Assembly (NCBI GenBank): GCA_039715015.1
Contig: JBDLIE010000005.1
Span: 5,575-69,574, forward strand
Length of the DNA stretch: 64,000 nt
Origin: Thermodesulfobacteriota bacterium
Lineage (GTDB): Bacteria > Desulfobacterota > Desulfobulbia > Desulfobulbales > SURF-16
Reading direction: 5' to 3'
The translations under genes were made by a program, and so were the position numbers. Below, piece by piece: positions 40,099 through 61,022 of this stretch; the first letter of the stretch is position 1; every line of letters begins with the position of its first letter. The notes under the pieces are model-generated. The model did no database searches, had not been told where the DNA came from, and saw only the letters and a list, made by a program, of their open reading frames with translations.

Positions 40099-40119
40099 AG
40101 TGTGACAAATTGTCACACT
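40099..40119. promoter_or_regulatory. 21-bp perfect palindrome agtgtgacaaattgtcacact (core GTGAC-AAATT-GTCAC), candidate operator
   Basis: Read directly. It is located in the divergent intergenic region between the beta-propeller gene and the ABC/TlpA/NosL operon. Confidence 0.65.
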
Positions 40120-47045: not shown

Positions 47046-47177
47046 TTGGTGTTGATTTAATAATTAATAGAAAAAATGCTCTTAATTAAAACACGTTAGC
47101 ATATCAATTTTATGGCTGCTAGGTATTTGAAAAAAGGCTTTGGCATAGCTTGGTGAAAAGGGAAAAAACAGGCCTAT

Positions 47178-47192
47178 GCGACAATTTGCCAC
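47178..47192. promoter_or_regulatory. GCGACAATTTGCCAC box upstream of regB
   Basis: Identical 15-mer at 57107-57121. Lies 133 nt upstream of the regB start codon. Confidence 0.6.
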
Positions 47193-47309
47193 ATTTTTCC
47201 GGTCGGCAACTTGTGTTCATGTGAATCCTTTACATATTTCTGATGAGCGAACCCAAGTAAACATTGAATATTTACCCTTTTATCCTTCTGCTTGTTATGT
47301 TGAGACACC

Positions 47310-47627
47310 TTAAACAGCATCATCGTCGATAAAACCCGCGAATATTTTTGCAAGCATGGGTTTGACATAACAACCAATGAATTCCCTGATCATCTTGTTG
47401 TTGAGCTTGACTTCATCGCCTCGCCTGAGGATGAAAAAGAGGCCAGCAGCGAAGAATTTCTGCGCATCTATTTCCGGCCTTGGTTTGGTCAATTTCGCAA
47501 CCTTGTTTGTAAAGAAGTTGAGGTTCGCGATATTAAAGCGGCTGTGGAGGGGGTAGATTTTTTCACGAGCAATGAGACTGACGCGGACTCGGACCAGGCC
47601 GCTTAAGATTAGAGCCCTAGAAGGCAT
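47310..47627 (-). CDS. orphan 105-aa ORF, possible gene remnant
   Basis: ORF only. No motif recognised. Sits in an 870-bp otherwise non-coding gap. Confidence 0.2.
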   Translation of the reverse strand: MPSRALILSGLVRVRVSLIAREKIYPLHSRFNIANLNFFTNKVAKLTKPRPEIDAQKFFAAGLFFILRRGDEVKLNNKMIREFIGCYVKPMLAKIFAGFIDDDAV

Positions 47628-47714
47628 ATTTTTTTATGGTCTTCATCCATTTGGACACTTTGAATTAGTCCTACTCCGCGCCGCCGCACACCCTTGCGGC
47701 TGTCAATGAAATCT

Positions 47715-47724
47715 CCCCCCCCCC
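47715..47724. repeat. homopolymeric C10 tract
   Basis: Read directly (atctcccccccccccttc). About 195 nt upstream of the TonB-dependent receptor start. Confidence 0.9.
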
Positions 47725-47803
47725 TTCACCTGCCGCGGGAAACACTCCCCTTTGCGGGGCGAGAATAGAAGCCCCTTCCCAGCCTGCGACACTTCACCAA
47801 TCT

Positions 47804-47818
47804 GCGACAATTCGCCAT
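47804..47818. promoter_or_regulatory. GCGACAATTCGCCAT box, preceded by weaker GCGACACTTCACCAA at 47786-47800
   Basis: Same half-site and spacing as the other boxes. About 100 nt upstream of the receptor start. Confidence 0.5.
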
Positions 47819-47917
47819 ATTGATAAAAATTGTATCGGTGGTGTTAACTATTCCTAGAGATTTTCAAGTCTCTGAAATGAATCTTATTTTTTAACTTTAA
47901 CAAGAGAGTACTGAGGC

Positions 47918-50014
47918 ATGATTCTGCGATGCAATGAACGTACTTTATTGCGCGCTGCCCTGGTTACCGGGACAGCGGCATTCTTTGTTTTGCCGCAACA
48001 GGTTTTTGCGGCTGAAGACCAGGTTGTCGAACTCAGTGACGTTGTTATCACGGCCTCCAGGATCAGTCAGCAGGTTAAGGATGCCCCGGTTGCCATCAGT
48101 ATTGTTTCCGAACAGGAACTGGACAAAATAAAGGCCAGGAATCCGCAAGAGTTTCTTTCCAGGGTCCCAGGTGTCAACTCCAGTAACTTTGGCGGTGAAT
48201 CAGAGCTTACCTCCATCAGGATACCAACCCATTTCACCAATCCATATACCGTTGTGTTGGTTGATGGCGTGCAGTATGGCAGCTATGGTTCCGGTAGCTC
48301 GAGCCAGTTTCGGGAGATTAACCTCAACAACATCGCACGTATCGAGGTGATCAAAGGGCCTGCCTCAGCTCTGTATGGCAGTAACGCCATCGGCGGTGTC
48401 ATTAACGTGATCACCAAGGAGCCTTCAGCTTTCCCCCAGGCCAGGATCTGGTCGGAACTGGGAGATTACAGGCAATGGCGGGCCGGCGTCTCCGGCAGTG
48501 GCGGATTTGATAAACTCAGCTATTTTATCGACGCCAATCACACCGATACGGAAGCTGCCCGGGAGCATAGTGGTGTTGATAAGCAGTCTGGCTCCGTGAA
48601 GTTGAACTATACCGCCACTGATGTGTCATTGCTGACCTTTAAAATAGACTATGTCACTGTCGAGAATGACTCCCCAGGCTCTATTAACCAGGATGATTTC
48701 GAAGAAGACTGGCTGCAGAGTTATCATAATTTTGCCTACAACAAGTCAGACAGGGTGGCACCTGCCCTCTCCTATGTCCATTATCTTGATGCTGCTGAGA
48801 TGCGGGCAATTTTTGTCTTACGGGACACTGAGGAGGAAACCATACCTAACTACAGCATTCGCCAGCTGACCTTTGGCCCATTTCCACGCCCCTATATTGG
48901 CAGTTATACAGAGGATGACAGTCTCGATATGAGCCTGCAGCTCTTATATAGTCACGACCTCTCCCTTTGGCGCAGCAAGGTAATTGTCGGCCTTGATACG
49001 GAGTATGGCAGCAAATATTCAAAGACCTATGACCTTTCGGTATCCTATGACAGCGCTCTCAACAAATATGAGAGCTATACCTTAGGGGACCTCGACAAGT
49101 CCTATGATATGACAACCAAGGTGGCAGCGCCATATCTGCAGCTCGAGAGTTCCCCTTGGAAAAAGCTGCGCATAACTGTCGGCGCCCGCTATGACTCGGC
49201 CCGGTATGAAGTTGAAGATCAATTGAGCAACAGCATTGAAAACAAGCGGGGGTTTGCCAAGACCAGCCCCAAAGCCGGTGTTACCTATGATATTAATGCC
49301 AACCTCAACACCTATGTCAGTTACTCAAAGGGCTTTGTTGTGCCCACCACTAGTCAGCTGTGGACCTCGCGCTATGACAACGCCGATCTGGATCCTGAAA
49401 ATGCCGAAAATTATGAGGTCGGTCTGCGCAGCAGCTTTATGAACAGACGTCTTAGGCTCGACATCTCTGTTTATGATATGACTATCACAGATAAGATCGT
49501 TATCAACAACACCCCGGCGCCGAATACCCGCTACATAAATGCGGGTAAGAGCTCACAGAAAGGCATCGAGGTAATGACCTCTTACGCGCCGCTGGAAAGC
49601 GTTCAGTTGAGTGTTGCCTACACATATGCCCGCAACAAGTATGAATCTTATAGTGATCAGGGTGTCGATTATAGCGGCAACTGGCAACCGCGCTCCCCTA
49701 AACATCACCTCAACGCCCGCCTGTCTGTATTCCCAGTCGACGGTGTAGAGGTCGAGCTGGAAATGGATGAGGTCAGCAGCCAGTTTGCTGACGACGCCAA
49801 CCTTTTTGAGTACACCAGGCCTACCCTTTTTAACCTCCGCGCCTCATACTACTGGAAGCGCTTCACTTTCTGGGGCCATATCCTGAATCTTACCGATAAG
49901 GAGCATGCAAACTATATGAGCTATAGTACCTCGGAAGACACCATGACCCTCTTTCCTGGTATTGCCAGAACGGCATTTGTCGGCCTTTCCTATCGGTTCG
50001 GAGGAGACAAGTAG
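47918..50014 (+). CDS. TonB-dependent outer-membrane receptor
   Basis: Signal peptide, TonB-box/plug region (VVELSDVVITASR...DAPVAISIV...RVPGV...IEVIKGPASALYGSNAIGGVINVITK), and a long beta-barrel ending ..GLSYRF.... Confidence 0.9.
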   Translation: MILRCNERTLLRAALVTGTAAFFVLPQQVFAAEDQVVELSDVVITASRISQQVKDAPVAISIVSEQELDKIKARNPQEFLSRVPGVNSSNFGGESELTSIRIPTHFTNPYTVVLVDGVQYGSYGSGSSSQFREINLNNIARIEVIKGPASALYGSNAIGGVINVITKEPSAFPQARIWSELGDYRQWRAGVSGSGGFDKLSYFIDANHTDTEAAREHSGVDKQSGSVKLNYTATDVSLLTFKIDYVTVENDSPGSINQDDFEEDWLQSYHNFAYNKSDRVAPALSYVHYLDAAEMRAIFVLRDTEEETIPNYSIRQLTFGPFPRPYIGSYTEDDSLDMSLQLLYSHDLSLWRSKVIVGLDTEYGSKYSKTYDLSVSYDSALNKYESYTLGDLDKSYDMTTKVAAPYLQLESSPWKKLRITVGARYDSARYEVEDQLSNSIENKRGFAKTSPKAGVTYDINANLNTYVSYSKGFVVPTTSQLWTSRYDNADLDPENAENYEVGLRSSFMNRRLRLDISVYDMTITDKIVINNTPAPNTRYINAGKSSQKGIEVMTSYAPLESVQLSVAYTYARNKYESYSDQGVDYSGNWQPRSPKHHLNARLSVFPVDGVEVELEMDEVSSQFADDANLFEYTRPTLFNLRASYYWKRFTFWGHILNLTDKEHANYMSYSTSEDTMTLFPGIARTAFVGLSYRFGGDK

Positions 50015-51066
50015 TGCCTTCTTTTTCAGGTGGTATACCGGGGCTTAAGGGCTCGGTCTGTTTTCTGACTTCAGTTATGCCGTTTCTTTTGCTGGGCGTT
50101 GCGACAGTGACTGAGGCGCAAGGGCTTCCCCCTTTGCGCCTCGCCCTTTCGCCCACTGCCCCTGTCGGTGAAGAATGCCTAGCGCATGGTCAAGGCGGCC
50201 CTGCCAAGGGCGGCAAGGCTGTAGATGACCGGCGGCCGGTACTTGAGTCAGAGCATAGACCACTGCCTGTCCGCACCTACCACTTCAACGCTCATCGTCG
50301 CTTGGCCGATGTAAAGGCCTATGTCCGGCATCCCGATGGCACAGTAGATGTGCCTGAACTTCGCCTGGGGGCCAATCCGCAACTTACTTTTAAAACACCC
50401 TTTGGCGATGGCCCCAATCATGGGGCACACAATGTCTATGTTGTCGAGCAGGGCGTTGAGGGAGATGTCCTGGTTGTCCGCACCGCAAAATGGATTGTCA
50501 TGCACCATAGCTGCGGTTGGGGACATGATCAAAAATTTAATGAGCAGCTCACCCAACCTCAACCTCTTGAGTCCATTCCCATGGAAATTCTGATCTCAGA
50601 CCTTTGGGACGGCAATTTCCACTTCCGGGTGACCACAGGTCAAAAACTTTCAATAACAGTGCTGCGGAATGGTCACCCCCTTGCCAAAGCCCGGGTAAGC
50701 GTGAGGAGTGAGCAAGGCTGGGTCAAAGAGGTAGATGCAGATAAAGATGGTGTCGCCACCTTTCAGCTGATCAGGGATTATTACCCCACCAGATGGCAGG
50801 AGTTTCACCGCACCCGGCGGGGCGAGTTTTTGGCCACGGCAACCTACGAGGCAGAGGAGCACGGCGAATATAAAGGGATACCGTATGGGCGTGTGCGCTA
50901 TATCACAACCCACCCCTGGACCTATGGCCCTTCAAGCTGGGACTATGCCTCCTATTCGATGGGTTTGCTGATCGCCGTCATTGCCATGGCCCTTACCGGT
51001 GGCGGTGTATTTATCTATCGTGAACGGCGCAAAAAGCCTTATCAGGAGATTGTTTTTGAAGAGTAA
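50014..51066 (+). CDS. DUF4198-like periplasmic protein with C-terminal membrane anchor
   Basis: The transthyretin-like segment GQKLSITVLRNGHPLAKARVSVRSEQGWVKEVDADKDGVATFQL is typical of DUF4198/NikK-like proteins. C-terminal TM MGLLIAVIAMALTGGGVFIY. An alternative ATG lies at 50077. Confidence 0.5.
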   Translation: MPSFSGGIPGLKGSVCFLTSVMPFLLLGVATVTEAQGLPPLRLALSPTAPVGEECLAHGQGGPAKGGKAVDDRRPVLESEHRPLPVRTYHFNAHRRLADVKAYVRHPDGTVDVPELRLGANPQLTFKTPFGDGPNHGAHNVYVVEQGVEGDVLVVRTAKWIVMHHSCGWGHDQKFNEQLTQPQPLESIPMEILISDLWDGNFHFRVTTGQKLSITVLRNGHPLAKARVSVRSEQGWVKEVDADKDGVATFQLIRDYYPTRWQEFHRTRRGEFLATATYEAEEHGEYKGIPYGRVRYITTHPWTYGPSSWDYASYSMGLLIAVIAMALTGGGVFIYRERRKKPYQEIVFEE

Positions 51067-52045
51067 ACTGCAGACCGCCATCAATAACTGTAATGTCAGC
51101 CGCTTTCGGTTTTACGTGCAGATCTTCAGCTTTGCACTCCTCGTTTATGGTGGATACCTGGCCATAAATATTGGCGACCAGTTGCCAACCTTTGCGTGTG
51201 TGTTCGATCAAATGAGGGGAGGGGCCTGCTACCTCATGGGCCTGCAGCATCAGATGACCACCCCCTTCAAGAGCTATTTCAGCGGCCGGGGCATTGGTAT
51301 GCTGACTGGGCTGCTGACTTTTTTTCTCTTTTTTATCGCCCTCAACAAGGCCTGGTGCGGTTTTGTTTGCCCCCTTGGCACCCTTCAGGACTGGCTGAGC
51401 AGCCTGCGCCGTAAATTCGGGATCCGGTACGCAACGTACTCGGCACAGAATTTCAAGGGCCTCGGTACCATCAAGTATATCCTGCTGGCCCTGTTGATTC
51501 TTCTCCCCATGGCCATAGGCAACAGCTTTTTCGGCCTGCCCAAGCTCAATCATGATTTTGGCGTGCCGTTCTGCATGATTTGTCCGGGGAGAACCCTGCT
51601 CCCGGTTTTTCATGGTGATTTTTCGCAGTTCATCATCGATTTCAGTTCAAAGACCAAGATGGTCTTCACGGCCCTGGGTATGGCGGTGACAGGTATGTTA
51701 TTGGCCGGCGCCTTTGCGAAGAAGCGGTTCTTCTGCCTCTTTTGCCCGATGAGCGCCTTTCACTATATCTTCCACAAGGCAGGCTTGCTGCGCCTTACCA
51801 AGGATGGCAGCAAGTGCACCCGTTGCGGAAACTGTTACCGGGCCTGTGATGTTGGTATCCATGCCATCGCCGATGACTTGACCCATAAAAATATTATCAA
51901 GGATGATTGCATGATGTGCCTGAAATGCATTGAAGCATGCCCGGAGGAAGATTGCCTGAAGGCTTCTTTTTTTGCAATGCCGGTTTATGAGTCAAGCGCC
52001 CAAGGGTTTTTTAAAAGGATGCAGGGGAAATGTCATGGAAAATGA
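51056..52045 (+). CDS. NapH/MauN-like membrane polyferredoxin
   Basis: Three membrane-proximal CxxCP motifs (CGFVCPLG, FCMICPGR, CLFCPMS) plus two ferredoxin motifs (CTRCGNCYRACD, CMMCLKCIEACP). The start is uncertain: the ORF is open from 50981, and TTG 51056 avoids overlap. Confidence 0.75.
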   Translation: MKSKLQTAINNCNVSRFRFYVQIFSFALLVYGGYLAINIGDQLPTFACVFDQMRGGACYLMGLQHQMTTPFKSYFSGRGIGMLTGLLTFFLFFIALNKAWCGFVCPLGTLQDWLSSLRRKFGIRYATYSAQNFKGLGTIKYILLALLILLPMAIGNSFFGLPKLNHDFGVPFCMICPGRTLLPVFHGDFSQFIIDFSSKTKMVFTALGMAVTGMLLAGAFAKKRFFCLFCPMSAFHYIFHKAGLLRLTKDGSKCTRCGNCYRACDVGIHAIADDLTHKNIIKDDCMMCLKCIEACPEEDCLKASFFAMPVYESSAQGFFKRMQGKCHGK

Positions 52046-53348
52046 ACGACTAAGGCGAGTGCGGAAGACGACCCTTCTTCATTTGGCCATGGAGGCCAAG
52101 AACACCCTGCTGAAGATAGAAGAAGAGTTTCCCGATAACCCGGCGGCAATGGACTACTTCTACACGCTCTATAAGGATGTATTCAACGACGAGCCGAAGC
52201 TGCCCACCGATAAGAAAATTATCGGGACGATGTGCGTCCAGGTCCCCCAAGAGCTTATACATGCTGTTGGGGCATTCCCCTTACGGTTATGCAATGGGGC
52301 TAGTGCCTATGATCAGGTAGGTGCCGAGTTTATGCCTGCCAAGTCCTGCCCTGTGGTGCGGGCGACAATGGGCATGCTTCATGTCGACCAGGCGCTGTGG
52401 GGGGAATCCCTGCAGGCCGTCGTCATCCCTACCACCTGCGACCAAAAGAAAAAATCATGCCAGATTCTTGCCGATATGGGCTACCCAGTCTATGCCCTGG
52501 ACATGCCAGCGACCAAGGAGAGCGAGGCCTCTCGTTTTTATTGGCAGGAGTCGATAAAAAAATTCACCCTGGATATGCAAAAAATAACCGGGGTGAAAAT
52601 AACTGCAAAGCGTGTCCAGGCAGCCATAGCAAAAGTAGCCTCAGCATCATCCCTGTACCGGAAGTTGCAGGAATTGCGAAAATCTGATTATGCCCTGATT
52701 CTTGGCAAGGATATGTTTTTGGTCACCAATGCCTATTTTTTTGATGAAATTGATCGCTGGCAGCAGTCTGTCAGCCGGCTGGTCGCCGAATTGGAAGAAC
52801 GTAAACGAAACGGCTTTAGCGCCGGCAAGCGCCAGGCCCCACGCATCCTTTTTACCGGTTCGCCACCAATATTTCCCAACCTCAAGGTTCCCATTCTGGT
52901 GGAACAGGCCGGCGGGGTTATCGTGGCAGATGAAACCTGCTCGTCGGGAAGACTTCTCTATGATTCCGTTGCCTTTGATGAAGCAACTCTCAACGACATG
53001 ATTCCCGCTCTTGCCGACCGCTCCCTGAAGCCCTGCACCTGCCCATGTCTCACCCCAAACAAGGACCGGCTGCGGAAGCTCATTAACATGGCCAAAGAAT
53101 TTGAGGCCGATGGCGTTGTCTATCAGGCTTTTTCTGGTTGCCTCCCCTATGAAATGGAGCAGAAGCAGGTTGCCAAGGCCCTGGCCGAAGCCGAAGTGCC
53201 GATGCTATATGTTGAAACCGACTATAGCCCTGAAGATATGGGGCAGCTTTCCACACGGATAGAGGCCTTTATCGAATCGATCCTGGCCCGGAGAAGAAAA
53301 AAGAAGGTTGCCCAGCTTCATCAGAAGGCAGGTGAGGAAGGCTCGTGA
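52035..53348 (+). CDS. 2-hydroxyacyl-CoA dehydratase / BcrC-BadD / double-cubane-cluster-protein family FeS protein
   Basis: Family-typical C-terminus YSPEDMGQLSTRIEAFIESI, with dispersed conserved-looking Cys (KSCPVV, TTCDQKKKSC, DETCSSG, PCTCPC, FSGCLPY). The next gene is the matching activase. Confidence 0.7.
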   Translation: MENERLRRVRKTTLLHLAMEAKNTLLKIEEEFPDNPAAMDYFYTLYKDVFNDEPKLPTDKKIIGTMCVQVPQELIHAVGAFPLRLCNGASAYDQVGAEFMPAKSCPVVRATMGMLHVDQALWGESLQAVVIPTTCDQKKKSCQILADMGYPVYALDMPATKESEASRFYWQESIKKFTLDMQKITGVKITAKRVQAAIAKVASASSLYRKLQELRKSDYALILGKDMFLVTNAYFFDEIDRWQQSVSRLVAELEERKRNGFSAGKRQAPRILFTGSPPIFPNLKVPILVEQAGGVIVADETCSSGRLLYDSVAFDEATLNDMIPALADRSLKPCTCPCLTPNKDRLRKLINMAKEFEADGVVYQAFSGCLPYEMEQKQVAKALAEAEVPMLYVETDYSPEDMGQLSTRIEAFIESILARRRKKKVAQLHQKAGEEGS

Positions 53349-54160
53349 ACTACTTTGCAGGTATTGATATCGGTTCGACCTCGATAAAGATTGTTCTGGC
53401 CGACGACAATGAACAGATTGTTGCCTCAGATGTCTGTCCGACTGGCAGTTTTTTTCATAAAAATACCATGACTGCCTTTGCTGGTTTATTGACCCAAAAA
53501 AATATCGATCGCCAGGAGGTGGTCTATATCATTTCCACCGGCTATGGCCGTAAGCTTTTCAAAGAGTCCGACGAGACTATCAGCGAGATCACTGCCAATG
53601 CCATTGGCGCCCGTAAAATCGGTGAGCGCTATGGCCAGACACGGACAATCATCAATATTGGCGGCCAGGACTTGAAGGTAATTCTTCTTGATGACGAGGG
53701 CCATGTTAAAAACTTTGCCATGAACGACAAGTGTGCGGCTGGTACCGGCCGCTTTCTGGAGATGACTGCCCGCAACCTGGAGGTTGAGGTTGATGAGCTT
53801 GGTGACTTTCATGAAAGGTGCGCCACTATTCCGTTAATCATTAACAGCACCTGTACTGTGTTTGCCGAGTCTGAGATTATCAGCCTGCTCGCCAACGGTC
53901 ATGGCAAAGAAGAACTCATTACCGGCATTCACTATTCCGTTGCCAGAAGGGTAGCGCGTCTGGCAAAACGCCATGGCGTAGAGGACATGGTCTTCTTTGA
54001 TGGCGGGCCTGCCTTAAATCAGGGTCTTGTTAAGGCCCTGGAGGATGAGTTGATGCACCGGGTTGTTGTCCCCGACACTCCACAGATTACCACCGCCTAT
54101 GGTGCTGCCTTGTTGGCCAGGGACGCCTATCTCTGTGAAGACGAGGTGGTTAATGGCTGA
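53345..54160 (+). CDS. BcrA/BadF/HgdC-type ATPase activase (CoA-substrate-specific enzyme activase family)
   Basis: Acetate/sugar-kinase fold N-terminus GIDIGSTSIKIVL and NDKCAAGTGRFLE (bridging-cluster Cys region). 271 aa. Confidence 0.8.
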   Translation: MNYFAGIDIGSTSIKIVLADDNEQIVASDVCPTGSFFHKNTMTAFAGLLTQKNIDRQEVVYIISTGYGRKLFKESDETISEITANAIGARKIGERYGQTRTIINIGGQDLKVILLDDEGHVKNFAMNDKCAAGTGRFLEMTARNLEVEVDELGDFHERCATIPLIINSTCTVFAESEIISLLANGHGKEELITGIHYSVARRVARLAKRHGVEDMVFFDGGPALNQGLVKALEDELMHRVVVPDTPQITTAYGAALLARDAYLCEDEVVNG

Positions 54161-54758
54161 ACTCTTCAGCTTTCTCGGCCTCGGTGTACTGTACGGCTGC
54201 ACCATGTGTAGCTTTACCTGCCTGCCATACCTGGGCATCTATCTCATGGGTACTGGCCAGGGTTTTGGCGACGGGGTGCGGGCATCGTTTTTTTTTCTGC
54301 TGGGAAAGGTTTGCACCTATACCTTGTTCGGGGCCTTGGCCGGGGCCTTGGGGATGGTCCTTGATTTGAGCGCCACCCAGGGCAAGGTATTGGGCCTTGT
54401 CTTGATAACGACCGGTATTTTCTTGCCCTTTGTGGCCAGGAAGCAATGCCAGGGGACTTGCCGGCAATCAGGGAAAAGACTCTCTCTCTTTTCCCTGGGC
54501 ATGGCCACCAGTCTGTTACCATGCCCGCCCTTGGCTGCGGTTTTTCTTGTGGCTGCCCAAAAAGGCTCCTGGCTCCTGGGGGCAGGATACGGAGCGCTGT
54601 TCGGTCTGGGCCTTTTTGTGTCGCCGCTCCTGCTGGCTGGAGGAGGGCTGGCCCATATAACAAAGACAATCCAGTTTGAAGCAAAGGGATTCACCCCCTA
54701 CCTGCAGGGTATTTCCATGTTGATAATAGTAGTGATTGGTCTGCGAGTTTTTATCTAA
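54153..54758 (+). CDS. DsbD_2/CcdA-like polytopic membrane protein
   Basis: Six hydrophobic segments. Cys-rich first helix GCTMCSFTCLPYLG and LLPCPPL later. The assignment is tentative. Confidence 0.4.
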   Translation: MAELFSFLGLGVLYGCTMCSFTCLPYLGIYLMGTGQGFGDGVRASFFFLLGKVCTYTLFGALAGALGMVLDLSATQGKVLGLVLITTGIFLPFVARKQCQGTCRQSGKRLSLFSLGMATSLLPCPPLAAVFLVAAQKGSWLLGAGYGALFGLGLFVSPLLLAGGGLAHITKTIQFEAKGFTPYLQGISMLIIVVIGLRVFI

Positions 54759-54764
54759 GGGGGA

Positions 54765-55199
54765 ATGGCTATGGAATGGCTTAAGGATGTCATTGATTAT
54801 GGAATAATTGGTTTCTTGCTGGTGATGAGTGTGGTTGCATGCGCCATCGCCATAGAAAGGTTCTTGGTTTTTCGTTCTATCAGGCTTGACGACTACCCCA
54901 ACAAGCAGCTCTTGCAGATTGAGCTCACCAAAAAGCTGCATGTCATTGCGATCATCGGCAGCAATGCCCCCTATTTGGGTCTGCTTGGCACGGTCCTCGG
55001 TATTATGCTGACCTTCTATAATCTGGGCCGGGAAGGCTTTATGGATACCAGCGAGATAATGGTGGGTTTGGCCTTGGCCCTGAAGGTAACAGCTGTTGGC
55101 TTGGTCGTGGCGATTCCGGCCGTTTTTCTTTATAATATGCTGCTGCGCCAGGCAAAGGTGCTGATGTTGCAATGGGAGAGTACCCATGGACGAGACTGA
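54765..55199 (+). CDS. exbB: ExbB (MotA/TolQ/ExbB family)
   Basis: IGSNAPYLGLLGTVLGIM and ALKVTAVGLVVAIPAVFLYN. Confidence 0.85.
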   Translation: MAMEWLKDVIDYGIIGFLLVMSVVACAIAIERFLVFRSIRLDDYPNKQLLQIELTKKLHVIAIIGSNAPYLGLLGTVLGIMLTFYNLGREGFMDTSEIMVGLALALKVTAVGLVVAIPAVFLYNMLLRQAKVLMLQWESTHGRD

Positions 55200-55566
55200 G
55201 TTCAATACCTTGAATGTGATCCCCCTCGTCGATGTGATGCTGGTCTTGCTGACCATTGTTTTGATGACATCGACTTTTATTGCGGTGGGCGGACTTTCCA
55301 TTGAATTGCCGCAAGCCGCCGGGGAAAAAGTGGAAATGTTAAAGACGCTGACCATCGAAATAGATAGTGAGGGCACCATATTTCTTGAGGCCGCGGCAAT
55401 ATCACTTGCCGGGTTGACTGATTCCTTGGCCGGAACCGATAAGGAGACACCCCTAATCATCCGGGCCGACAAGAAATTGGCCTTACAACATTTTGTTGAG
55501 GTGATGAGTGCGGCAAAGGCTTTGGGTTTCACCAAGGTAAGCCTGCAAACCGAGGTGACCTCATGA
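55186..55566 (+). CDS. exbD: ExbD
   Basis: LNVIPLVDVMLVLLTIVLM signature. 126 aa. Confidence 0.85.
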   Translation: MDETEFNTLNVIPLVDVMLVLLTIVLMTSTFIAVGGLSIELPQAAGEKVEMLKTLTIEIDSEGTIFLEAAAISLAGLTDSLAGTDKETPLIIRADKKLALQHFVEVMSAAKALGFTKVSLQTEVTS

Positions 55567-56297
55567 ATTATCAAGGCTGGGGCTTAGGAATATCCATGAT
55601 GCTCCATGGCCTTTTGGCCTGGGGGCTGTTGAGCACAATTACCACTTCCACCCTGAATCCCTTGGACGGCAAGAGCCGGATAAGCCTTGATTTCTGCCTG
55701 CTGCCTCTCCAGGCGGTGGTGCTGGCACAAAGCTCACCATCTCCGCCCCAACCTAGGAAGGTGGTGAAAAAAAAACCAGCCACGCCTGTCAAGGTGCGGG
55801 AGATAGCCAAACCTGAAGCCAGCAAGAAAAAAACTGTCGTTGCCGAAAAACAACCCGATCCGGCCCAGGTTGCCCCGGCACTGGCTGAAGAACGGCTGGT
55901 TGCCAAACAGGAAGTTGGAGCTGAAGATTTGCCGCCAGCCGGCTTTAGCGAGGCTGGGCCGGGCACGGCTGACGAGGCTGCCACCGTTCCGCAGGCTTCT
56001 CTGCAAGCCGCCAAACGGCAGCAGTATGTTGATACCTATTTTTCTGATATCTGCCAAAAGATACAGCAAAACATGCGTTATCCCAAACTAGCCCGCCGTA
56101 TGGGCCTGGAAGGGAAGGTTGTGGTCTCATTTATGGTTCATAAAGATGGCAATATTGATGATGTGCGTATAGTGCAAAGCTCCGGGGTGAGAATTCTTGA
56201 TAAAAACGCCATTGATACCATAAAAAATACGGCCCCCTTTCCGAAGCCGCCGATCACTGCCGAGTTGATTGTGCCGATCAAATACGGTTTGGTCTGA
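55563..56297 (+). CDS. tonB: TonB energy transducer
   Basis: N-terminal anchor, Pro/Lys-rich spacer (PSPPQPRKVVKKKPATPVKV), and C-terminal TonB domain (YPKLARRMGLEGKVVVSFMVHKDGNI..VRIVQSSG..LD). Confidence 0.85.
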   Translation: MNYQGWGLGISMMLHGLLAWGLLSTITTSTLNPLDGKSRISLDFCLLPLQAVVLAQSSPSPPQPRKVVKKKPATPVKVREIAKPEASKKKTVVAEKQPDPAQVAPALAEERLVAKQEVGAEDLPPAGFSEAGPGTADEAATVPQASLQAAKRQQYVDTYFSDICQKIQQNMRYPKLARRMGLEGKVVVSFMVHKDGNIDDVRIVQSSGVRILDKNAIDTIKNTAPFPKPPITAELIVPIKYGLV

Positions 56298-56684
56298 AAC
56301 CGTTGATCCTTGCAGGTCTTCTTGCCTGTAATCCCATGGCAGGTAATGTAACTGCCTGCTGTTAATGGCTTTTTCCAAGACTCTCATTTCATCGACTTAG
56401 ATACAAATCCAAAGACCTGGCAGGTATCGGCTAGGTGCTTGGATTTTGTGGTACTTGAGCGAGAATCAAACTCGAACGGGCGCAATGTCAAACCGCTTTG
56501 AAAATTAACCTCTCAACCGCGTCCAATTTTGCCCCCTTATTTTAAACAAAAGAGATCATTTTCTGTTTTTCAACCTCCAATTCTCCCTTGTGAAGAGTGT
56601 CATTGCAGGGCCAATCAGCAACCGGTTCTTTACGGAGCGTCAGGGGCTCAGTCGGGGTGATTCTTGCCAAGGCGGTTGGCTCCT

Positions 56685-56979
56685 ACTCTCTGGCAATGGT
56701 GCGGTGTCACTCGCTTAAGGATTGCTGAATGTGCGAGACGAAAAAGGTCGTTAAAATTGCACTTATGGCAGAAGCAAGCTCCATACCCTATAGATGAAGG
56801 TCCATATTCAAGGTAGTAATAGTGCAAACCTGCTGGAAAAGAAATGAACCGATCTTGATCGTAAGAATTTGGCTGGCCACGGCCCACCAACGTAATTTTA
56901 GCAGCCACAAGAGACCAATTCGCTTGGTGTTATGAGTATTTTGCTAAGGATTCAGTCTGCTTAGAAAAGTGGGATCCAT
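56685..56979 (-). pseudogene. decayed, internally deleted copy of the regB-type kinase 5' region
   Basis: The minus strand translates to MDPTFLSRLNP*QNTHNTKRIGLLWLLKLRWWAVASQILTIKIGSFLF-QQVCTITTLNMDLHL*GMELASAISAILTTFFVSHIQQSLSE*HRTIA. The intact kinase reads ...RSIGLNWLVKLRWWAVAGQILTIAIGSFFF...QQVCNITNFNMDLHLQGMWFAYAVSAVLITFFASRIQQSLRDYHRTIA. The copy has three in-frame stops and lacks about 340 bp (46567-46905 equivalent). Confidence 0.8.
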
Positions 56980-57106
56980 TGTGTTTGGTTGAGGTGGAAG
57001 GGAAGGTGTCGACTGAATCAAAATCAGCACATCAACCTCAAGCCCGCCAACCACCTAAGGGACACTTTCTCAATATCTTTTGGCCAAAAGGATCAACGAG
57101 ACTTAT

Positions 57107-57121
57107 GCGACAATTTGCCAC
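57107..57121. promoter_or_regulatory. GCGACAATTTGCCAC box upstream of the TorD/molybdoenzyme operon
   Basis: Identical to 47178-47192. It is embedded in a roughly 60-bp block (57104-57163) that is homologous to 47175-47235. Confidence 0.6.
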
Positions 57122-57318
57122 ATTTTCCCTGCCGCTAACTTGTGTTAAGGAGAATCGTTTACAAGGAAAAGGTGAATTGGCCTAAGTATGCAATGCTTAT
57201 ACAAAATTCATTCTCTTATTTTTTTTAACGAGTATGTAAAGCTCCTTTGAATATTTGATTCTCATTTTTTTTATTTTGTAATGAGTACACCAATATATTC
57301 TGACAACCACGGTATCTT

Positions 57319-57870
57319 ATGTCAGCAGCAGACGAGCCAATCAGGCTTGCAGAAATCTATCGTTTCCTGGCGCAGACCATGCGCTATCCAGAGTCATCAT
57401 GGTTCCATGATGACTATCTCTCTGTTTTTAAAGAGATGCTCGTTCAGCTTGAGTGGCAAGATAACGTCAATGCCCTTCCTGAGAGGATTACTGACGAGAT
57501 CCTTGAAGAGATTCAGGTTGATTACACCCGCCTTTTTATCAATGCCGTTCCTCATGTTATAGCCCCTCCTTATGCCTCGGTATATATCGATGGTACCTTA
57601 AATAGCACCACTGCTGATAAGACCCGCGAGTATTTCCGCCAGAAAGGCTTCGATACCACAAACACCGAGTTCCCTGACCATCTTGTTACTGAACTTGATT
57701 TCCTGTCCTTGCTTGAGGATGAGAGTGAGGGCAGTAGCGAAGAATTTTTAACCCAATATTTTCGCCCCTGGTTTGAGATGTTTCGCGATCTTGTTCTAAA
57801 AGAGGTTGAAGTTTCATACATCAAATCAGCCATTGAACTAATAGATTTTTTCACCACCAATGAGACCTAA
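57319..57870 (+). CDS. TorD/DmsD-family redox-enzyme maturation chaperone
   Basis: YRFLAQTMRYPE, DYTRLFINAVPHVIAPPYASVYIDG, and FPDHLVTELDFLS match the TorD-family pattern. Confidence 0.75.
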   Translation: MSAADEPIRLAEIYRFLAQTMRYPESSWFHDDYLSVFKEMLVQLEWQDNVNALPERITDEILEEIQVDYTRLFINAVPHVIAPPYASVYIDGTLNSTTADKTREYFRQKGFDTTNTEFPDHLVTELDFLSLLEDESEGSSEEFLTQYFRPWFEMFRDLVLKEVEVSYIKSAIELIDFFTTNET

Positions 57871-57970: not shown

Positions 57971-60175
57971 ATGGCTTTCAACTTAACAAGACGTAAATTC
58001 CTGCAAACGGCTTCGCTTGCAGCGGCTTCTGTGCCGTTGGCAAATGTTGTCGCTGCAGAGGCCGGCGTTGCCAAGTCGCCATTTACACCGTCTGGTACCA
58101 TTGCAGATAAAACTGCTGTTGGCGGTATCTGTGAGATGTGTTTTTGGCGCTGTCAGCTTGTCGGTAAGGTTCGTGACAACAAGCTCATGAAGCTTGAGGG
58201 TAACCCCAAGTCGATTGACAACGGCAAGGCGATTTGTGCCCGCGGTAATGCCGGTGTCCAGCTTCTTTATGATAAGGATCGTCTCAAGTACCCCATGAAA
58301 AATGTCGGTAAGCGTGGTGCTCCTAAGTGGAAGAGAATCTCCTGGGACGAAGCCCTTGATACCTGTGCCAAGAAGCTGAAAGCCACTGAGAAGAAGTTTG
58401 GCGCCAAGGGTATCTGTATGTTTCCCCATGGTGCTTCAGCCAAATATCCCATGCATTATTTTGAGAAGACAGTTGGTACTCACAATGTAAGTGAGGCCTC
58501 TTTCTTCCAGTGCCGTGGTATCCGTGACACTGCCTTTGTTAATACCATCGGAACCCCTCCAGGTGAGAATGTTGATATGGCAAACGCCAAGGTTATCTTT
58601 GCCCTTGGTGGCCATTTTGGCGAGAACGTTCATGTCTCCCATGTGAAGCGTTACCTGAAAGGCCTGGAGAATGGTGCCAAGCTGGTTATCGTTGATCCCC
58701 GTTTTTCCGCCTCTGCCGCCAAGGCTGATGAGTGGGTACCTGTTAAGCCTGGTACTGATACCGCTCTTATGCTCGGTATGATGAACTACATCATCAAAAA
58801 AGGTAAGCACAACAAGGCATTCATTGAGAAGCACGGAAGCGGTTTTGACGAGTTCAAAGAGGCTATTTCCGGCTGGTCCATTAAGAAGACCGCTAAGACC
58901 TGTGACGTTCCTGCTGATCAGATCAAACGCGTTGCTAATCTTTTGGCTGACAATGCTCCTAATGTATCAATCCATCCCGGCCGTCACGTAAGTTGGCATG
59001 GTAATGACTTCCAGCGTCAGCGCTCTCTTGGCTGTATGATGGGTCTGCTTGGCGCCATGGGGGTCAAGGGCGGATTTGTTAAGGGTAAAGGCCCTAAAGG
59101 TGTCGGCAAGGTGAGCTGGCCTAAAGGTGACCATCATGAAGAGGCCCTTCATGTCGCCGCAGATGTCCATCATTTCGCGCCTCCAGGAACACCCACTGAT
59201 CTGATTCGTGATGCGGCAATTACCGGTAATCCCTATCCGATCAAGTCCTGCGTTATCTGGGGCCAGAACCCTATGCAGACTATTCCGAACCAGAAAAAGA
59301 CCATCGATATGCTTAAGCAGATGGATTTTGTAATGTGTGTTGATGTTATGCCCACCGACATCACCATGTATGCTGATATCCTCCTGCCCGAGGGTTCGTA
59401 TCTGGAACGTTACGACTATATCAAGAAGGGTACTCAGTGGAACCTCTCCGGCAAACAGGAGCAGTATATCTCTGCTCGTATGCCAATGGTGAAGGCTGAT
59501 TTCGAACGTAAGGACCAGGTCTACATCACCAACGAAATAGCTGAACGTATGGGTTATGGTGATAAGATTCCTGTTAAGACTCTTCCCGAGATGGTTGATA
59601 AGCAGCTTGCCGGTGCCGGTCTTTCTATCAAGAAACTAGTTGCTGAAAATGGTATCCATGTCCAGCCAGGTAAAGATCCCTATGGTGTTTCCGAGGACCT
59701 GGAAGTCATCTTCAATAATGAAGAGATTGGCGAGCTCGGTTATCCGTCCTCACCGACCTATATTCCTGTTGAAGAGGTGCCATCCGGTCATTTTCGTCTG
59801 CTTTACGGTCGTTCACCTGTGCATACCTTTAACCGCAGTCAGAACAATGTTTGGCTCCATAACGCCATGCCTGAAAATCCTGTATGGCTTAATGATGCAA
59901 TGGCTGAAAAACTTGGTCTTAAAGATGGTGACCGGGTATATTGTGTTAACAGCGAAGGCGTGAAGTCTCGCACCACTACATCTGTCAAGGTCACCCCAGG
60001 TATCCGCAAAGACTGCGTATACATGGCCCATGGCTATGGTTCCATGAACCCTGCTTTGAGCGTTGGTGTGGGCGCTGGTATTGATGATCAGTCTCTGATC
60101 ACCAAGCTGGCTGTGGATCCAGAAACAGGTTGTCACGGTATGCGTAATAACTTTGTTAAACTGGTTAAAGCGTAA
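57971..60175 (+). CDS. Tat-exported molybdopterin oxidoreductase catalytic subunit (Psr/Phs/Sre/Arr-type)
   Basis: Twin-arginine signal LTRRKFLQTASLAAA. N-terminal FeS motif CEMCFWRC...CARG. The candidate Mo ligand is in the FFQCRG region. 734 aa. Confidence 0.85.
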   Translation: MAFNLTRRKFLQTASLAAASVPLANVVAAEAGVAKSPFTPSGTIADKTAVGGICEMCFWRCQLVGKVRDNKLMKLEGNPKSIDNGKAICARGNAGVQLLYDKDRLKYPMKNVGKRGAPKWKRISWDEALDTCAKKLKATEKKFGAKGICMFPHGASAKYPMHYFEKTVGTHNVSEASFFQCRGIRDTAFVNTIGTPPGENVDMANAKVIFALGGHFGENVHVSHVKRYLKGLENGAKLVIVDPRFSASAAKADEWVPVKPGTDTALMLGMMNYIIKKGKHNKAFIEKHGSGFDEFKEAISGWSIKKTAKTCDVPADQIKRVANLLADNAPNVSIHPGRHVSWHGNDFQRQRSLGCMMGLLGAMGVKGGFVKGKGPKGVGKVSWPKGDHHEEALHVAADVHHFAPPGTPTDLIRDAAITGNPYPIKSCVIWGQNPMQTIPNQKKTIDMLKQMDFVMCVDVMPTDITMYADILLPEGSYLERYDYIKKGTQWNLSGKQEQYISARMPMVKADFERKDQVYITNEIAERMGYGDKIPVKTLPEMVDKQLAGAGLSIKKLVAENGIHVQPGKDPYGVSEDLEVIFNNEEIGELGYPSSPTYIPVEEVPSGHFRLLYGRSPVHTFNRSQNNVWLHNAMPENPVWLNDAMAEKLGLKDGDRVYCVNSEGVKSRTTTSVKVTPGIRKDCVYMAHGYGSMNPALSVGVGAGIDDQSLITKLAVDPETGCHGMRNNFVKLVKA

Positions 60176-60221
60176 GACTTTATAAGCCTACGAGATACTC
60201 TATTAAGGAGGATTTACCGTT

Positions 60222-61022
60222 ATGCAATACGGAATGGTTATAGATTTAAATAAGTGTGTTGGCTGTCACGCCTGCACCATCGCCTGTAAAGCCGAGTGGG
60301 AAGTGCCGGCAGATAAGGGCAGAAACTGGGTTCATCGTCTGGGCCCTGCCAATACTCCCCATGGCCTGGCTTCCACTTACTATCCAGGTCTATGCAACCA
60401 CTGCAATGAGCCTGCCTGTGTTCCTGTCTGCCCTGCTGACACCGTTCAGAAGACCTTCAAGGACAAGAAAACCGGCAAGACCAAGAGCATGGAAGTGGCT
60501 GCAACATATAAAGATCCCTTTAACGGTACTGTTCAGATCGATAAGGAACGTTGCCTGGGTTGTGGTGCTTGTGCTGATGCCTGTCCTTACAGCGCTCGTT
60601 ATGTGAACGAGAACCAGATCAACGAGGAAATTGGCAGTGAAGGTACGGCTGACAAGTGCACTTACTGCATGCCCCGGGTAGAGAAGGGCCTTGAACCTGC
60701 CTGTGTTCAGACCTGTCTGGCTGGCGCTCGCATCTTTGGCGACCTGGATGATCCTAACTCTGCGCCTTCCAAGTACAAGAAGGATGGGGCCAAGAGTCTG
60801 TCGTCCGCCAAGGTCAATATTGGCTCTAACGGTCTCTATTACGGCAACAAACGTGATATGGCACTGCTAACCTCCATGTCAACTCCCCAGGAGATGCCGG
60901 AGGCCAATATGCGCCGTATCCTGATGGCTAAAATGAAGCCTGGCTTCAATAAGGCCAAAAAACTTGGCATGCTGGGCCTTGTTGGCGCAGTAGCTATGAA
61001 AGGAATGAGCGAAGAAGAGTAG
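60222..61022 (+). CDS. four-cluster 4Fe-4S electron-transfer subunit with C-terminal hydrophobic helix
   Basis: CVGCHACTIACK, CNHCNEPACVPVCP, CLGCGACADACP, and CTYC...CVQTC. C-terminal LGMLGLVGAVAM segment. Confidence 0.85.
   Translation: MQYGMVIDLNKCVGCHACTIACKAEWEVPADKGRNWVHRLGPANTPHGLASTYYPGLCNHCNEPACVPVCPADTVQKTFKDKKTGKTKSMEVAATYKDPFNGTVQIDKERCLGCGACADACPYSARYVNENQINEEIGSEGTADKCTYCMPRVEKGLEPACVQTCLAGARIFGDLDDPNSAPSKYKKDGAKSLSSAKVNIGSNGLYYGNKRDMALLTSMSTPQEMPEANMRRILMAKMKPGFNKAKKLGMLGLVGAVAMKGMSEEE

Follow-up and report, generated by a model that had tools for sequence, protein, structure and literature searches.

How did a broken second copy of regB come to lie on the far side of a TonB module from the intact gene? 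The window (the whole stretch of DNA that was analysed, 64 kb of a metagenome-assembled genome, to which all coordinates refer) had been read in two ways. The remnant was either the genome's own decayed duplicate, made when the module was inserted between regB and torD, or the trace of a lost paralogous Reg system. The features on which the answer depends are the following, with the evidence for each in brackets.

40083..40116 (+), two further operator boxes, GTGACAATCTGTCCC and the palindromic GTGACAAATTGTCAC (box search)
45157..45684 (-), regA-like response regulator, native (Pfam Response_reg and HTH_8)
45690..47045 (-), intact regB-like histidine kinase, copy A, native (Pfam HATPase_c, HisKA and 6TM_PilS)
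47046..47300, regB–torD intergenic region of copy A, native (L031 alignment, trees)
47301..47636 (+), torD 3' fragment with ~30 nt of 3' flank, putatively foreign (tblastx, chi-square breakpoint)
47310..47627 (-), "orphan ORF", antisense to the torD fragment
47637..47917 (+), leader of the TonB module (box search, L030 comparison)
47918..56297 (+), nine-gene TonB module, the cargo (Pfam, NCBIfam)
56298..56690, spacer between the TonB stop and the regB remnant
56691..56979 (-), regB pseudogene, putatively foreign (blastn, translation, codon comparison)
56980..57318, regB–torD intergenic region of copy B, L048-like and putatively foreign (sliding windows, trees)
57319..57870 (+), working torD-family chaperone gene (Pfam Nitrate_red_del)
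57971-60175 (+), PhsA/PsrA-like molybdopterin oxidoreductase, native (Pfam, NCBIfam)
60222-61022 (+), 4Fe-4S subunit of the PhsA/PsrA-like oxidoreductase, native (Pfam, NCBIfam)

Structure of the direct repeat

Three blastn matches link the two sides of the module and keep a collinear order: 56691-56835 with 46412-46556 (77%, 145 nt, E 2e-27), 56834-56898 with 46900-46964 (77%, 65 nt, E 2e-9) and 57086-57163 with 47157-47234 (79%, 78 nt, E 2e-15). The same pairs were found again by an independent repeat search. Aligning the copies had been suggested as a check, and their similarity is significant well beyond a shared 15-mer (E 2e-27 to 2e-9). Both copies have the same orientation, as originally predicted, and the repeat is longer than was then noted. 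In full it comprises 46412-47636 and 56691-57924, and each copy carries a distinct deletion.

The regB remnant had been described as a minus-strand pseudogene of the 5' region at 56685-56979, and this description holds with slightly narrower limits (56691-56979 by blastn). The estimate of three-quarters DNA identity agrees with the 77% found in both regB segments. Translation of the frame, which starts at 56979, located the three expected stops (TAG at 56946-56944, TAG at 56790-56788 and TGA at 56709-56707), and the internal deletion, put at about 340 bp, measures 343 bp by blastn. The deleted part matches 46557-46899, or regB codons ~49-163, and included the GGXXNPF motif. What is left are codons 1-48 and 164-211, the homology ending at codon 211, just short of the H-box. 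The remnant breaks 11 of the 48 amino acid columns that are invariant in nine working orthologues, against 0-3 in controls. With its disabling lesions and relaxed constraint, this piece of regB is a pseudogene.

The left side of the module holds a piece of torD. The plus-strand stretch 47307-47606 matches torD from codon 93 to the end (57595-57894, tblastx), with 72% nucleotide identity and 64% amino acid identity over 110 residues, and the similarity runs on to 47636/57924. The fragment has no start codon, and its frame is open from 47304 to a natural TAA at 47604-47606. It breaks 6 of 54 invariant columns, which is inside the control range, and a protein search with its 99 residues gave no match. 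It keeps a long C-terminus (…ETDADSDQAA*) that has been lost from the torD of the window and of L031; these two share a premature stop, and the C-terminus of the fragment is the ancestral one. The previously noted "orphan ORF" (47310-47627) has no Pfam match and runs antisense to this fragment, and the equivalent antisense frame is also open over the working torD (57570-57860, minus strand). It is therefore a shadow of the torD fragment, not a gene.

The locus in related genomes

A torD sequence stands directly beside regB in eight Desulfobulbales loci (L001-L004, L031, L048, L049 and L051; in L048 and L051 the contig stops within torD), with a gap of ~330-350 bp where this was measured. L050, the ninth locus compared, breaks off within the intergenic region that holds the box. 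None of the nine has the TonB module between the two genes, and no relative compared has a second regB copy at this locus. The ancestral order was thus regA-regB, a ~340-bp intergenic region with one box, torD, the PhsA-like molybdoenzyme and its FeS subunit. The comparison with related genomes that had been called for gave the expected picture, regB directly beside torD where the module is absent, which indicates that the module was inserted. Insertion by duplication between regB and torD, as originally proposed, stands in its first half only: the relatives support an insertion, and the trees described below speak against a duplication of the genome's own DNA.

Both outer flanks of the locus are L031-like. 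Amino acid identity to the L031 counterpart is 95% for the regA-like product, 86% for the intact regB product and 98% over 262 residues for the PhsA/PsrA-like locus at 57971..61022.

Different affinities of the two repeat copies

NJ/K2P trees with bootstrap, built on short segments (289, 300 and 184 nt), place the two copies apart. The intact regB pairs with L031 (99.7-100%) and the regB remnant falls outside the pair; the working torD likewise pairs with L031 (97.5-99.7%) and the torD fragment falls outside. The spacer and box of copy A group with L031 (99.7-99.8%), and the copy B intergenic region groups with L048 (99.6%). For the placement of the remnants among deeper lineages, bootstraps are <70%. 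In sliding windows, copy B is 65-88% identical to L048 and 37-74% to L031, and the spacers of copies A and B, at 43% identity, are not alignable with each other. At the nucleotide level, the torD fragment shares 80% identity with L001, 72% with the working torD and 67% with L031; between the working torD and L031 the same comparison gives 80%.

Differences of the remnants are distributed over the three codon positions as 5/7/19, 17/6/26 and 18/21/43, with dN/dS of 0.15-0.30; the window and its nearest relative are already separated by a dS of ~1.25. Such an excess at third positions shows that the remnants worked during most of their divergence and died recently. The contrast between the 11/48 columns broken in the regB remnant and the torD fragment's place in the control range fits a regB piece that was dead on arrival and a torD piece that was disabled later. 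A local segmental duplication would leave sister copies with differences spread evenly over codon positions, and we observed neither. The proposal that the regB remnant is the genome's own duplicate had been tied to a phylogeny of the remnant against the intact gene, and this phylogeny went against it, the intact copy pairing with L031 and the remnant lying outside. The third-position excess and the L048-like copy B intergenic region contradict it as well.

The points at which affinity changes are sharp. On the left, copy A is collinear with L031 up to 47300, which corresponds to ~98 bp upstream of the L031 torD ATG, and then ends abruptly. The maximum chi-square breakpoint is at 47312-47315 (p 5.5e-10), and the 47300/47301 join has at most 2-4 nt of possible microhomology. 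On the right, copy B switches within torD codons 34-40 (57420-57438, maximum chi-square p 9e-7), with 60 L031-like against 141 L048-like sites to the left and 38 against 19 to the right; the matching part of copy A (-98 to codon 92) is deleted. No part of the unit is better conserved than the stretch around the right breakpoint, with 79-92% identity among all sequences. By these affinities the working torD appears to be chimeric, its first ~34-40 codons foreign and the remainder native. The copy B intergenic region now lies ahead of the working torD operon and acts as its foreign promoter region, with a conserved box-to-ATG spacing. The coding remnants are without function.

A conserved box, predicted to be an operator, and a RegBA-like pair

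The homologous block with an identical 15-bp box, at first put at about 60 bp, is really 78 nt long (47157-47234 in copy A, 57086-57163 in copy B). Within it lies an identical 23-mer, TATGCGACAATTTGCCACATTTT, and the box itself, GCGACAATTTGCCAC, is found at 47178-47192 and 57107-57121. The box is an imperfect inverted repeat, GCGACAA-T-TTGCCAC. It is no sign of duplication: in nine orthologous loci the box is invariant and keeps a constant distance to the two start codons, and it also precedes TonB modules in unrelated contexts and an ABC/NosL operon. Since every relative has it unchanged and it occurs elsewhere, its identity in the two copies tells us nothing about the age of the event. The two further boxes at 40083..40116 precede an ABC/redoxin/NosL operon starting at 40227, and an equivalent box lies upstream of the same operon in L001, L003, L004, L048 and L049. 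We read the box as a conserved operator, most likely that of the RegA-like regulator. We take it to resemble published RegA/RegR boxes; a published consensus string for these was not found in the literature searched. Around the two box blocks, consensus scans for promoters and terminators matched less often than in shuffled sequence and were uninformative. A crossover within the identical 23-mer, mediated by the box, was considered and rejected: copy A is still native 66 nt past the block, and copy B is foreign ~300 nt past the box.

The regulator itself is encoded beside regB and consists, in ~180 aa, of a REC domain and a short C-terminal Fis-type HTH. It matches the NCBIfam ActR/PrrA/RegA model NF033791 over positions 3-172/173 with 187.6 bits, below the cutoff of 250, and has PDB matches to 3rqi (2e-40) and, for residues 130-173, to 1umq (1.6e-9). 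The kinase matches the ActS/PrrB/RegB model NF033792 over positions 4-420/423 with 224.7 bits, below the cutoff of 350; because this score is under the equivalog cutoff, we call it RegB-like. Five orthologues share, without variation, GGTMNPF (residues 106-112) and the H-box AAHELSTPL. Cysteines at positions 255 and 278 are also invariant in the five, in a numbering not aligned to Rhodobacter capsulatus. In R. capsulatus, the redox-active cysteine downstream of the RegB H-box is Cys265.

The TonB module

The cargo encodes, in order, a TonB-dependent receptor, a DUF4198-like protein, a NapH-like polyferredoxin, a double-cubane-cluster reductase, a BcrAD-type activator ATPase, a DsbD_2 protein, ExbB, ExbD and TonB. 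Its composition differs from that of its surroundings, with a GC content of 50-55% against 43-50% in the flanks and a GC3 of 0.594 against 0.480 in flanking genes. The module of L030 is 84.7% identical to it at the nucleotide level over 8 kb and stands in a different context; with L052, L053 and the P0003 contig, four other contexts contain the same module, and in one other genome it lies divergent beside a regBA-like pair. A metagenome scan with the receptor yielded no confirmed relative, and exact look-ups of the window's receptor and of P0001 returned no record.

The leader has an operator box of its own at 47804-47818 (GCGACAATTCGCCAT) and a C10 run at 47715-47724. A 21-nt island around this box and the last 37 nt of the leader are conserved in L030, upstream of its receptor gene; apart from these, neither the leader (47637-47917) nor the spacer (56298-56690) has a match in 53 loci. 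The spacer is also without similarity to the rest of the window and has no tRNA or Rfam match. Neither ARAGORN nor Rfam confirmed a look-alike of a tRNA 3' end near 56450-56480. In four of the five known contexts the DNA ahead of the module is readable, and there the box lies 114-148 nt upstream of it.

As the same box precedes torD, the module and the ABC/NosL operon, the module landed next to a regulator by which it was probably controlled already. A more speculative extension, which we think improbable, is that the TonB/double-cubane-reductase module is a regulon cassette that travels among Desulfobulbales genomes without a recombinase, bringing the operator of the RegA-like regulator with it and using borrowed regB–torD junction pieces as portable homology arms. 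The hints are the five contexts, with a box upstream in the four that are readable, the position beside a regBA-like pair in one other genome, and the foreign regB and torD flanks in the window. Such a cassette would tend to land beside, and under, its own RegA-like regulator.

Proposed integration of foreign DNA and alternative explanations

The two repeat copies appear to be a pair, one resident and one foreign, that marks the ends of a horizontally acquired block of ~10.1 kb (~47301-57430). By its sequence affinities the repeat looks like an ordinary recombination scar, whose decayed inner pieces would be the regB and torD of another species. We consider it likely that foreign DNA with a regB–torD junction integrated by homology and then decayed. 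DNA of another member of the same family would have recombined inside the conserved 5' end of torD, bringing in the 5' part of a regB cut at codon 211, an intergenic region and a torD, all linked to the TonB module of nine genes. The most economical route would be one crossover with a circular or circularised molecule (Campbell-type integration), the circle being one that we infer. It would yield, in order, resident regB, box, foreign torD', module, foreign regB', foreign box and resident torD. The truncated foreign regB would have been dead on arrival and would then have gained its three stops and the 343-bp deletion, and the hybrid torD ahead of the module, a redundant copy, would later have lost ~370 bp, from position -98 to codon 92. 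The state of decay is plain in the window; the order of its steps is reconstructed.

In accordance with this route, direct repeats stand on either side of the insert, the members of each pair being a resident copy and an incoming one. A single crossover would also leave the switch at one homologous position in both copies, and the stretch of copy A that would show it (-98 to codon 92) is deleted. Pfam searches of the scanned ORFs from 47310 to 56908 found no transposase or integrase domain. There was no att-like repeat, tRNA or Rfam match, and the ends of the foreign block have no terminal inverted repeats. Without these features the block does not qualify as a transposon, an IS or an integrase island. 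Counting against integration, recombination between sequences that are ~15-20% diverged is inefficient. No donor genome or circular form was found among the loci compared. Since the torD fragment is L001/L003-like but the copy B intergenic region is L048-like, the donor would be unsampled or a mosaic, or there were two events. That incoming linear DNA can circularise and then integrate by a single crossover is established in E. coli (PMC3240628).

The strongest competitor, which we regard as possible but distinctly less probable, dispenses with the circle: repeat, module and repeat would have pre-existed in another lineage and moved as a linear fragment, either through the flanking repeats or by homology-facilitated illegitimate recombination (HFIR). 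In the HFIR version the torD 5' end would be the anchor and 47300/47301 the illegitimate join. The right end is indeed a homologous crossover and the left join is abrupt, with 2-4 nt of microhomology at most, and one homologous plus one illegitimate end is what defines HFIR in the summaries of PMC3240628 and PMC5361080. The tree evidence for foreign inner pieces fits equally well. However, the junction at 47300/47301 could equally be a later deletion, and the torD 3' half at the non-anchored end is otherwise unexplained. Moreover, this account requires a donor that was already duplicated, which only shifts the question of origin, and none was found.

Integration also has to be set against an old tandem arrangement, in which two regBA-torD loci both worked for long and each then lost the half that the other kept, while the relatives lost the part between the repeats. 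Recombination between direct repeats would restore a single-copy locus, and the signature of purifying selection indicates that the remnants once worked. Nevertheless, we judge this very unlikely, as is its close kin in the original prediction, a lost paralogous Reg system. The remnants are 65-80% similar, the level of orthologues, whereas true paralogues in the order Desulfobulbales are at 40-46%. Five to eight independent lineages would have to lose the same segment cleanly, no relative has kept the second copy, there is no trace of regA', of the 3' half of regB' or of a second molybdoenzyme gene, and the composition of the module is unlike that of the flanks.

Local duplication of the genome's own regB 5' part, promoter and torD at the time of module insertion would account for collinear direct repeats in the same orientation that bracket the module, and for relatives without it. 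It hardly survives the comparison with L031, which splits the copies at 97.5-100% bootstrap. Distances are not additive either (67% for the torD fragment and 80% for the working torD, both to L031), and the copy B spacer is 43% identical to copy A but 65-88% to L048. In addition, a copy dead from birth would be expected to show dN/dS of ~0.5 and many stops, and the torD fragment has 0.16-0.24 and no stop before its TAA. An assembly chimera of two related metagenome populations is just as implausible: the source is a metagenome-assembled genome and the right switch lies in conserved sequence, through which an assembler might pass from one strain to another. At the left join (47300/47301), however, there is no common k-mer by which an assembler might have made the link, the stops and deletions of the remnants must belong to some real genome, both outer flanks are L031-like, and native-type regB beside a foreign torD fragment and module needs a mixed genome regardless of the right join.

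Annotation is affected: the "orphan ORF" should not be listed as a gene and, if foreign DNA was integrated, the regB copy should be given as a foreign pseudogene, and torD as chimeric under a foreign promoter region. The locus would then be a worked example of how a 10-kb metabolic and uptake cluster entered an uncultured sulfur-cycling lineage through recombination of diverged DNA, without mobile-element machinery and with both ends of the foreign block mapped to a few nucleotides. It also cautions that diverged direct repeats around an insert need not mean local duplication, and that an identical short motif can be a conserved operator instead of a sign of recency. For the Desulfobulbales, a RegBA-like regulon is predicted that comprises the PhsA-like operon, the ABC/NosL operon and the TonB/double-cubane-reductase module.

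Comparison with known systems

The pair beside the module resembles the RegB/RegA redox two-component systems (PrrB/PrrA, ActS/ActR, RegS/RegR) in its multi-pass membrane kinase with the GGXXNPF motif, which is the quinone-site motif of RegB-type kinases (PMC8191878). As in RegA/PrrA, the regulator joins REC to a short HTH of the Fis type, with a match to the PrrA effector domain (1umq). The NCBIfam models of this family are the best full-length matches, with the window proteins below the equivalog cutoffs. The window comes from a member of the Desulfobulbales rather than of the Proteobacteria.

Rhs/T6SS arrays offer a partial parallel, in that their orphan 3' fragments and immunity genes arise by displacement (PMC5361080). 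There too, an incoming module recombines in a conserved 5' region and leaves truncated remnants of the same orientation beside the cargo. However, these arrays are recurrent hotspots; the window shows a one-off event in a regulatory and respiratory locus, with remnants that retain no function.

HFIR, as described by de Vries & Wackernagel (2002) and Prudhomme et al. (2002) in the summaries of PMC5361080 and PMC3240628, shares with the window one homologous anchor (here 57420-57438), one non-homologous join and a gain of several kilobases with little resident loss; it differs in predicting no homologous torD 3' half at the non-anchored end. Experimental HFIR inserts are usually much shorter.

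Campbell integration is another close counterpart. In both cases direct repeats of a homologous segment bracket the insert, with a resident and an incoming member each, there is no integrase, att site or short target duplication, and the redundant copies are expected to decay. The usual partners in such integration are near-identical, unlike those in the window, which are ~15-25% diverged (homeologous).

Repeat copies flanking the TonB module

In this stretch an intact regB and a working torD lie on either side of a nine-gene TonB cluster. The features that matter here are as follows.

45157-45684, minus strand: RegA-like regulator gene (family profile matches)
45690-47045, minus strand: intact RegB-like kinase gene, regB (family profile matches)
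47301-47606, plus strand: torD 3' fragment
47918-56297, plus strand: TonB module of nine genes in a single direction, encoding a TonB-dependent receptor (1), a DUF4198-like protein (2), a NapH-like polyferredoxin (3), a double-cubane-cluster reductase (4; NF040772, score over the cutoff), its BcrAD-type activator ATPase (5), a DsbD_2 protein (6) and ExbB, ExbD and TonB (7-9)
56691-56979, minus strand: regB remnant
57319-57870, plus strand: working torD (Pfam Nitrate_red_del)
downstream of torD: PhsA-like molybdopterin oxidoreductase and FeS subunit genes
40083-40116, 47178-47192, 47804-47818 and 57107-57121: sites of a 15-nt box

Blastn alignment of 56300-57400 against 45600-47400 gave three colinear same-strand matches, and an independent repeat search of the window recovered the same pairs.

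Repeat matches between the two copies (blastn)
56691-56835 and 46412-46556: 77% over 145 nt, E 2e-27
56834-56898 and 46900-46964: 77% over 65 nt, E 2e-9
57086-57163 and 47157-47234: 79% over 78 nt, E 2e-15, including an identical 23-mer, TATGCGACAATTTGCCACATTTT

The positions of the first two matches define a 343-bp deletion in the regB remnant (regB codons ~49-163). Read on the minus strand from its ATG at 56979, the remnant is interrupted by stops at codons 12, 179 and 206 and ends at codon 211, immediately ahead of the H-box. The original prediction had described a regB remnant with three in-frame stops and a deletion of about 340 bp, preceded by a block homologous to 47175-47235; direct reading and blastn bore out all of its sequence statements. 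The repeat of regB and its promoter is thus real, but the unit is longer and also takes in torD. By tblastx, 47307-47636 (plus strand) is homologous to 57595-57924, the torD 3' half with a short 3' flank, and the torD fragment is 64% identical to the window's torD over 110 residues (72% over 300 nt). The unit therefore comprises the regB 5' 634 bp, the box-bearing intergenic region, torD and ~30-50 nt further. Damage to the two copies is complementary. The left copy (copy A, 46412-47636) retains regB and lacks the stretch that starts ~98 bp ahead of torD and runs to codon 92 of that gene; the right copy (copy B, 56691-57924) retains torD, and its regB is wrecked. An ORF at 47310-47627 (minus strand), the orphan ORF of the original prediction, had no match in family searches. 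It is antisense to the torD fragment, the corresponding antisense frame is also open over the working torD (57570-57860), and it is a shadow ORF rather than a gene.

Neither an integrase, a transposase, a tRNA, an Rfam family nor a terminal inverted repeat was found in the inserted region or at its ends. A look-alike of a tRNA T-arm and acceptor 3' end at 56450-56480 (minus strand) was unsupported by ARAGORN or Rfam and matched no repeat within the window. A C10 run in the TonB-module leader (47715-47724, within 47637-47800) could be slippage-prone or assembly-sensitive. The conserved module pairs a TonB-dependent receptor and ExbB/ExbD/TonB with a double-cubane-cluster reductase, its activator ATPase, a NapH-like polyferredoxin and a DsbD-like protein, and such reductase-type partners are unusual for an outer-membrane uptake system.

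Insertion in the window lineage

Scans with the kinase as query retrieved orthologues of this locus in metagenomes and in MAGs of the Desulfurivibrionaceae and Desulfobulbaceae (L001-L004, L031 and L048-L051). None has a TonB module at the regB-torD junction, which identifies the module as an insertion in the window lineage. In eight related loci regB is directly adjoined by torD sequence (gap ~330-350 bp where measured), the adjacency that the original prediction had proposed looking for where the module is absent. The contig end cuts torD in L048 and L051, and L050 stops inside the box-bearing intergenic region. Contigs that are long enough share the order ABC, unknown gene, regA, regB, torD, molybdoenzyme gene and FeS subunit. 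A 336-aa ORF (44094-45104, plus strand) that separates regA from the ABC ATPase gene has no Pfam or NCBIfam match and is kept (71-80% aa) in every related locus of sufficient length. The closest relative, L031, shares 86% (regB), 95% (regA) and 98% (molybdoenzyme, over 262 residues) amino acid identity with the window. A module copy in L030 is 84.7% identical over 8 kb in another genomic context; more distant copies occupy three further contexts, giving at least five overall (window, L030, L052, L053 and the P0003 contig).

Foreign ancestry of the inner pieces

The inner pieces are foreign and not copies of this genome's genes. The torD fragment is 72% identical to the window's own torD, 80% to L001 and 67% to L031, in contrast with 80% between the working torD and L031; for the regB remnant the values are 71% (own regB), 75% (L001) and 64% (L031). 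Neighbour-joining trees (K2P distances, 1000 bootstraps) grouped intact regB with L031 in the regB-remnant region (99.7-100%) and working torD with L031 in the torD-fragment region (97.5-99.7%). For the spacer and box, copy A grouped with L031 (99.7-99.8%) and copy B with L048 (99.6%); placement of the remnants among deeper lineages had support below 70%. In agreement with these groupings, the window's torD (stop 57868-57870) and that of L031 (about 891) share a derived stop nine codons early (ACC TAA/ACC TGA). All other orthologues have the lost codons (…EADSEQAA), and the torD fragment (47577-47606) retains the long ancestral end, …ETDADSDQAA*, as in L001-L004 and L049.

From regB past the box block and up to 47300, copy A stays close to L031; it then skips to torD codon ~93. 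In 100-nt windows, the part of copy B that begins with the 5' end of the regB remnant and takes in the spacer, box and intergenic region is 65-88% identical to L048 versus 37-74% to L031, and sliding windows show copy B turning L031-like from about 57411. Maximum chi-square placed the left switch at 47312-47315 (147:93 versus 12:53 informative sites; nominal p 5.5e-10, breakpoint choice uncorrected) and the right switch at 57420-57438 (60:141 versus 38:19; nominal p 9e-7, likewise uncorrected). The latter lies within torD codons 34-40, the most conserved stretch of the repeat unit (all sequences 79-92% identical). These profiles and switch positions delimit a foreign block of roughly 10.1 kb (~47301-57430). 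Mean GC3 is 0.594 in the nine module genes versus 0.480 in twelve flanking genes, and GC is 50-55% in the cargo versus 43-50% in the flanks. The L048 contig (CAUJPA010000359.1), whose intergenic region is the most copy-B-like, ends inside torD at position 1; this break could reflect chance or a repeat in that genome.

By codon position, differences from the working homologue were 5/7/19 and 17/6/26 in the regB remnant segments and 18/21/43 in the torD fragment, and third positions hold most differences from any working homologue. Remnant dN/dS is 0.16-0.30, near the 0.03-0.27 between working orthologues; a duplicate truncated at birth would be dead and should show ~0.5 against a constrained partner. 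Synonymous divergence from the closest relative is already ~1.25 for regB and regA, so a piece that had stopped functioning that long ago could no longer be recognised. By their substitution pattern, the inner pieces ceased to be working genes only recently. Signs of relaxed constraint are present but limited: the regB remnant violates 11 of 48 amino acid columns invariant in nine working orthologues (controls 0-3), the torD fragment 6 of 54 (controls 0-7), and the latter has no stop ahead of its natural TAA.

A putative shared operator

The box, GCGACAATTTGCCAC, is invariant in 9/9 orthologous intergenic regions, with 124-133 nt separating it from the regB ATG and 193-212 nt from that of torD. 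It also lies 114-148 nt upstream of the module receptor gene in the window, L030, L052 and L053, with two mismatches in the window (47804). Palindromic variants, GYGACAAATTGTCRC, precede an ABC/redoxin/NosL operon in the window (40102) and five relatives. Non-palindromic boxes are always oriented towards the downstream gene, and the loose pattern occurs six times in the window versus 0.46 in a mononucleotide shuffle. We consider the box a putative conserved operator, and its identity in copies A and B would then reflect function. It may be assigned to the RegA-like regulator, since it sits in that regulator's own locus, has imperfect dyad symmetry and, in the P0003 contig, a divergent regBA-like pair adjoins the module; it presumably resembles published RegA/RegR boxes.

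Across Desulfobulbales the motif occurs in the window, L001-L010, L030, L031 and L048-L053, at torD/PhsA-like operons, ABC/redoxin/NosL operons, TonB/double-cubane-reductase modules and nosL-regBA paralogue operons. In the last of these, a NosL-like lipoprotein gene (CGVCGM motif; L005 9275-9820 and equivalents in L006-L010), itself preceded by the same box in L005-L008 and L010, lies ahead of distant regBA paralogues (40-46% identity), again linking the system to NosL-type proteins. The motif has the look of an operator for a RegBA-like regulon.

Mechanism and significance

The module was inserted; the torD 5' end holds a homologous switch, the junction at 47300/47301 is abrupt, and the inner pieces have decayed since. 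A circular or circularised foreign molecule may have entered the chromosome by one crossover within the torD 5' end, bringing the regB remnant (codons 211 to 1) with the intergenic region, the torD now left as a fragment, and the module. Such a single crossover would account for the observed order, in which the outer copies are resident and the inner ones foreign. The regB that came in truncated would have been non-functional from the start, in keeping with its heavier decay, and the redundant hybrid torD preceding the module would later have been lost through a ~370-bp deletion. Incoming linear DNA is documented to circularise and then integrate by a single crossover (PMC3240628). In the main rival mechanism, either a linear fragment that already had the repeat-module-repeat structure was transferred, or homology-facilitated illegitimate recombination took place (PMC5361080). 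The part of copy A that would tell these routes apart has been lost, and no donor genome was found.

The original prediction was right that the module was inserted; its duplicative origin for the repeat, a local duplication of the window's own genes, is rejected, as L031 splits the copies in the trees, distances are non-additive, the codon-position pattern is contrary and the spacers of copies A and B are unalignable. Its other reading, a second paralogous Reg-type system, is also rejected: taken as an old tandem paralogue it would require many identical losses, and no relative examined has a second copy. An assembly chimera, a concern since the source is a MAG, is rejected as well, for it can create neither the left junction nor the pseudogene lesions.

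What remains most interesting is the predicted operator-defined regulon, along with a possible spread of the module via homology to the locus of its regulator. The resolved structure is of use for annotation and cautions against taking diverged repeats for local duplications. The case is not surprising in kind: it illustrates, in good resolution, a known process in which a gene cluster is gained through recombination with diverged DNA and in which resident/foreign direct repeats plus gene fragments are left behind.
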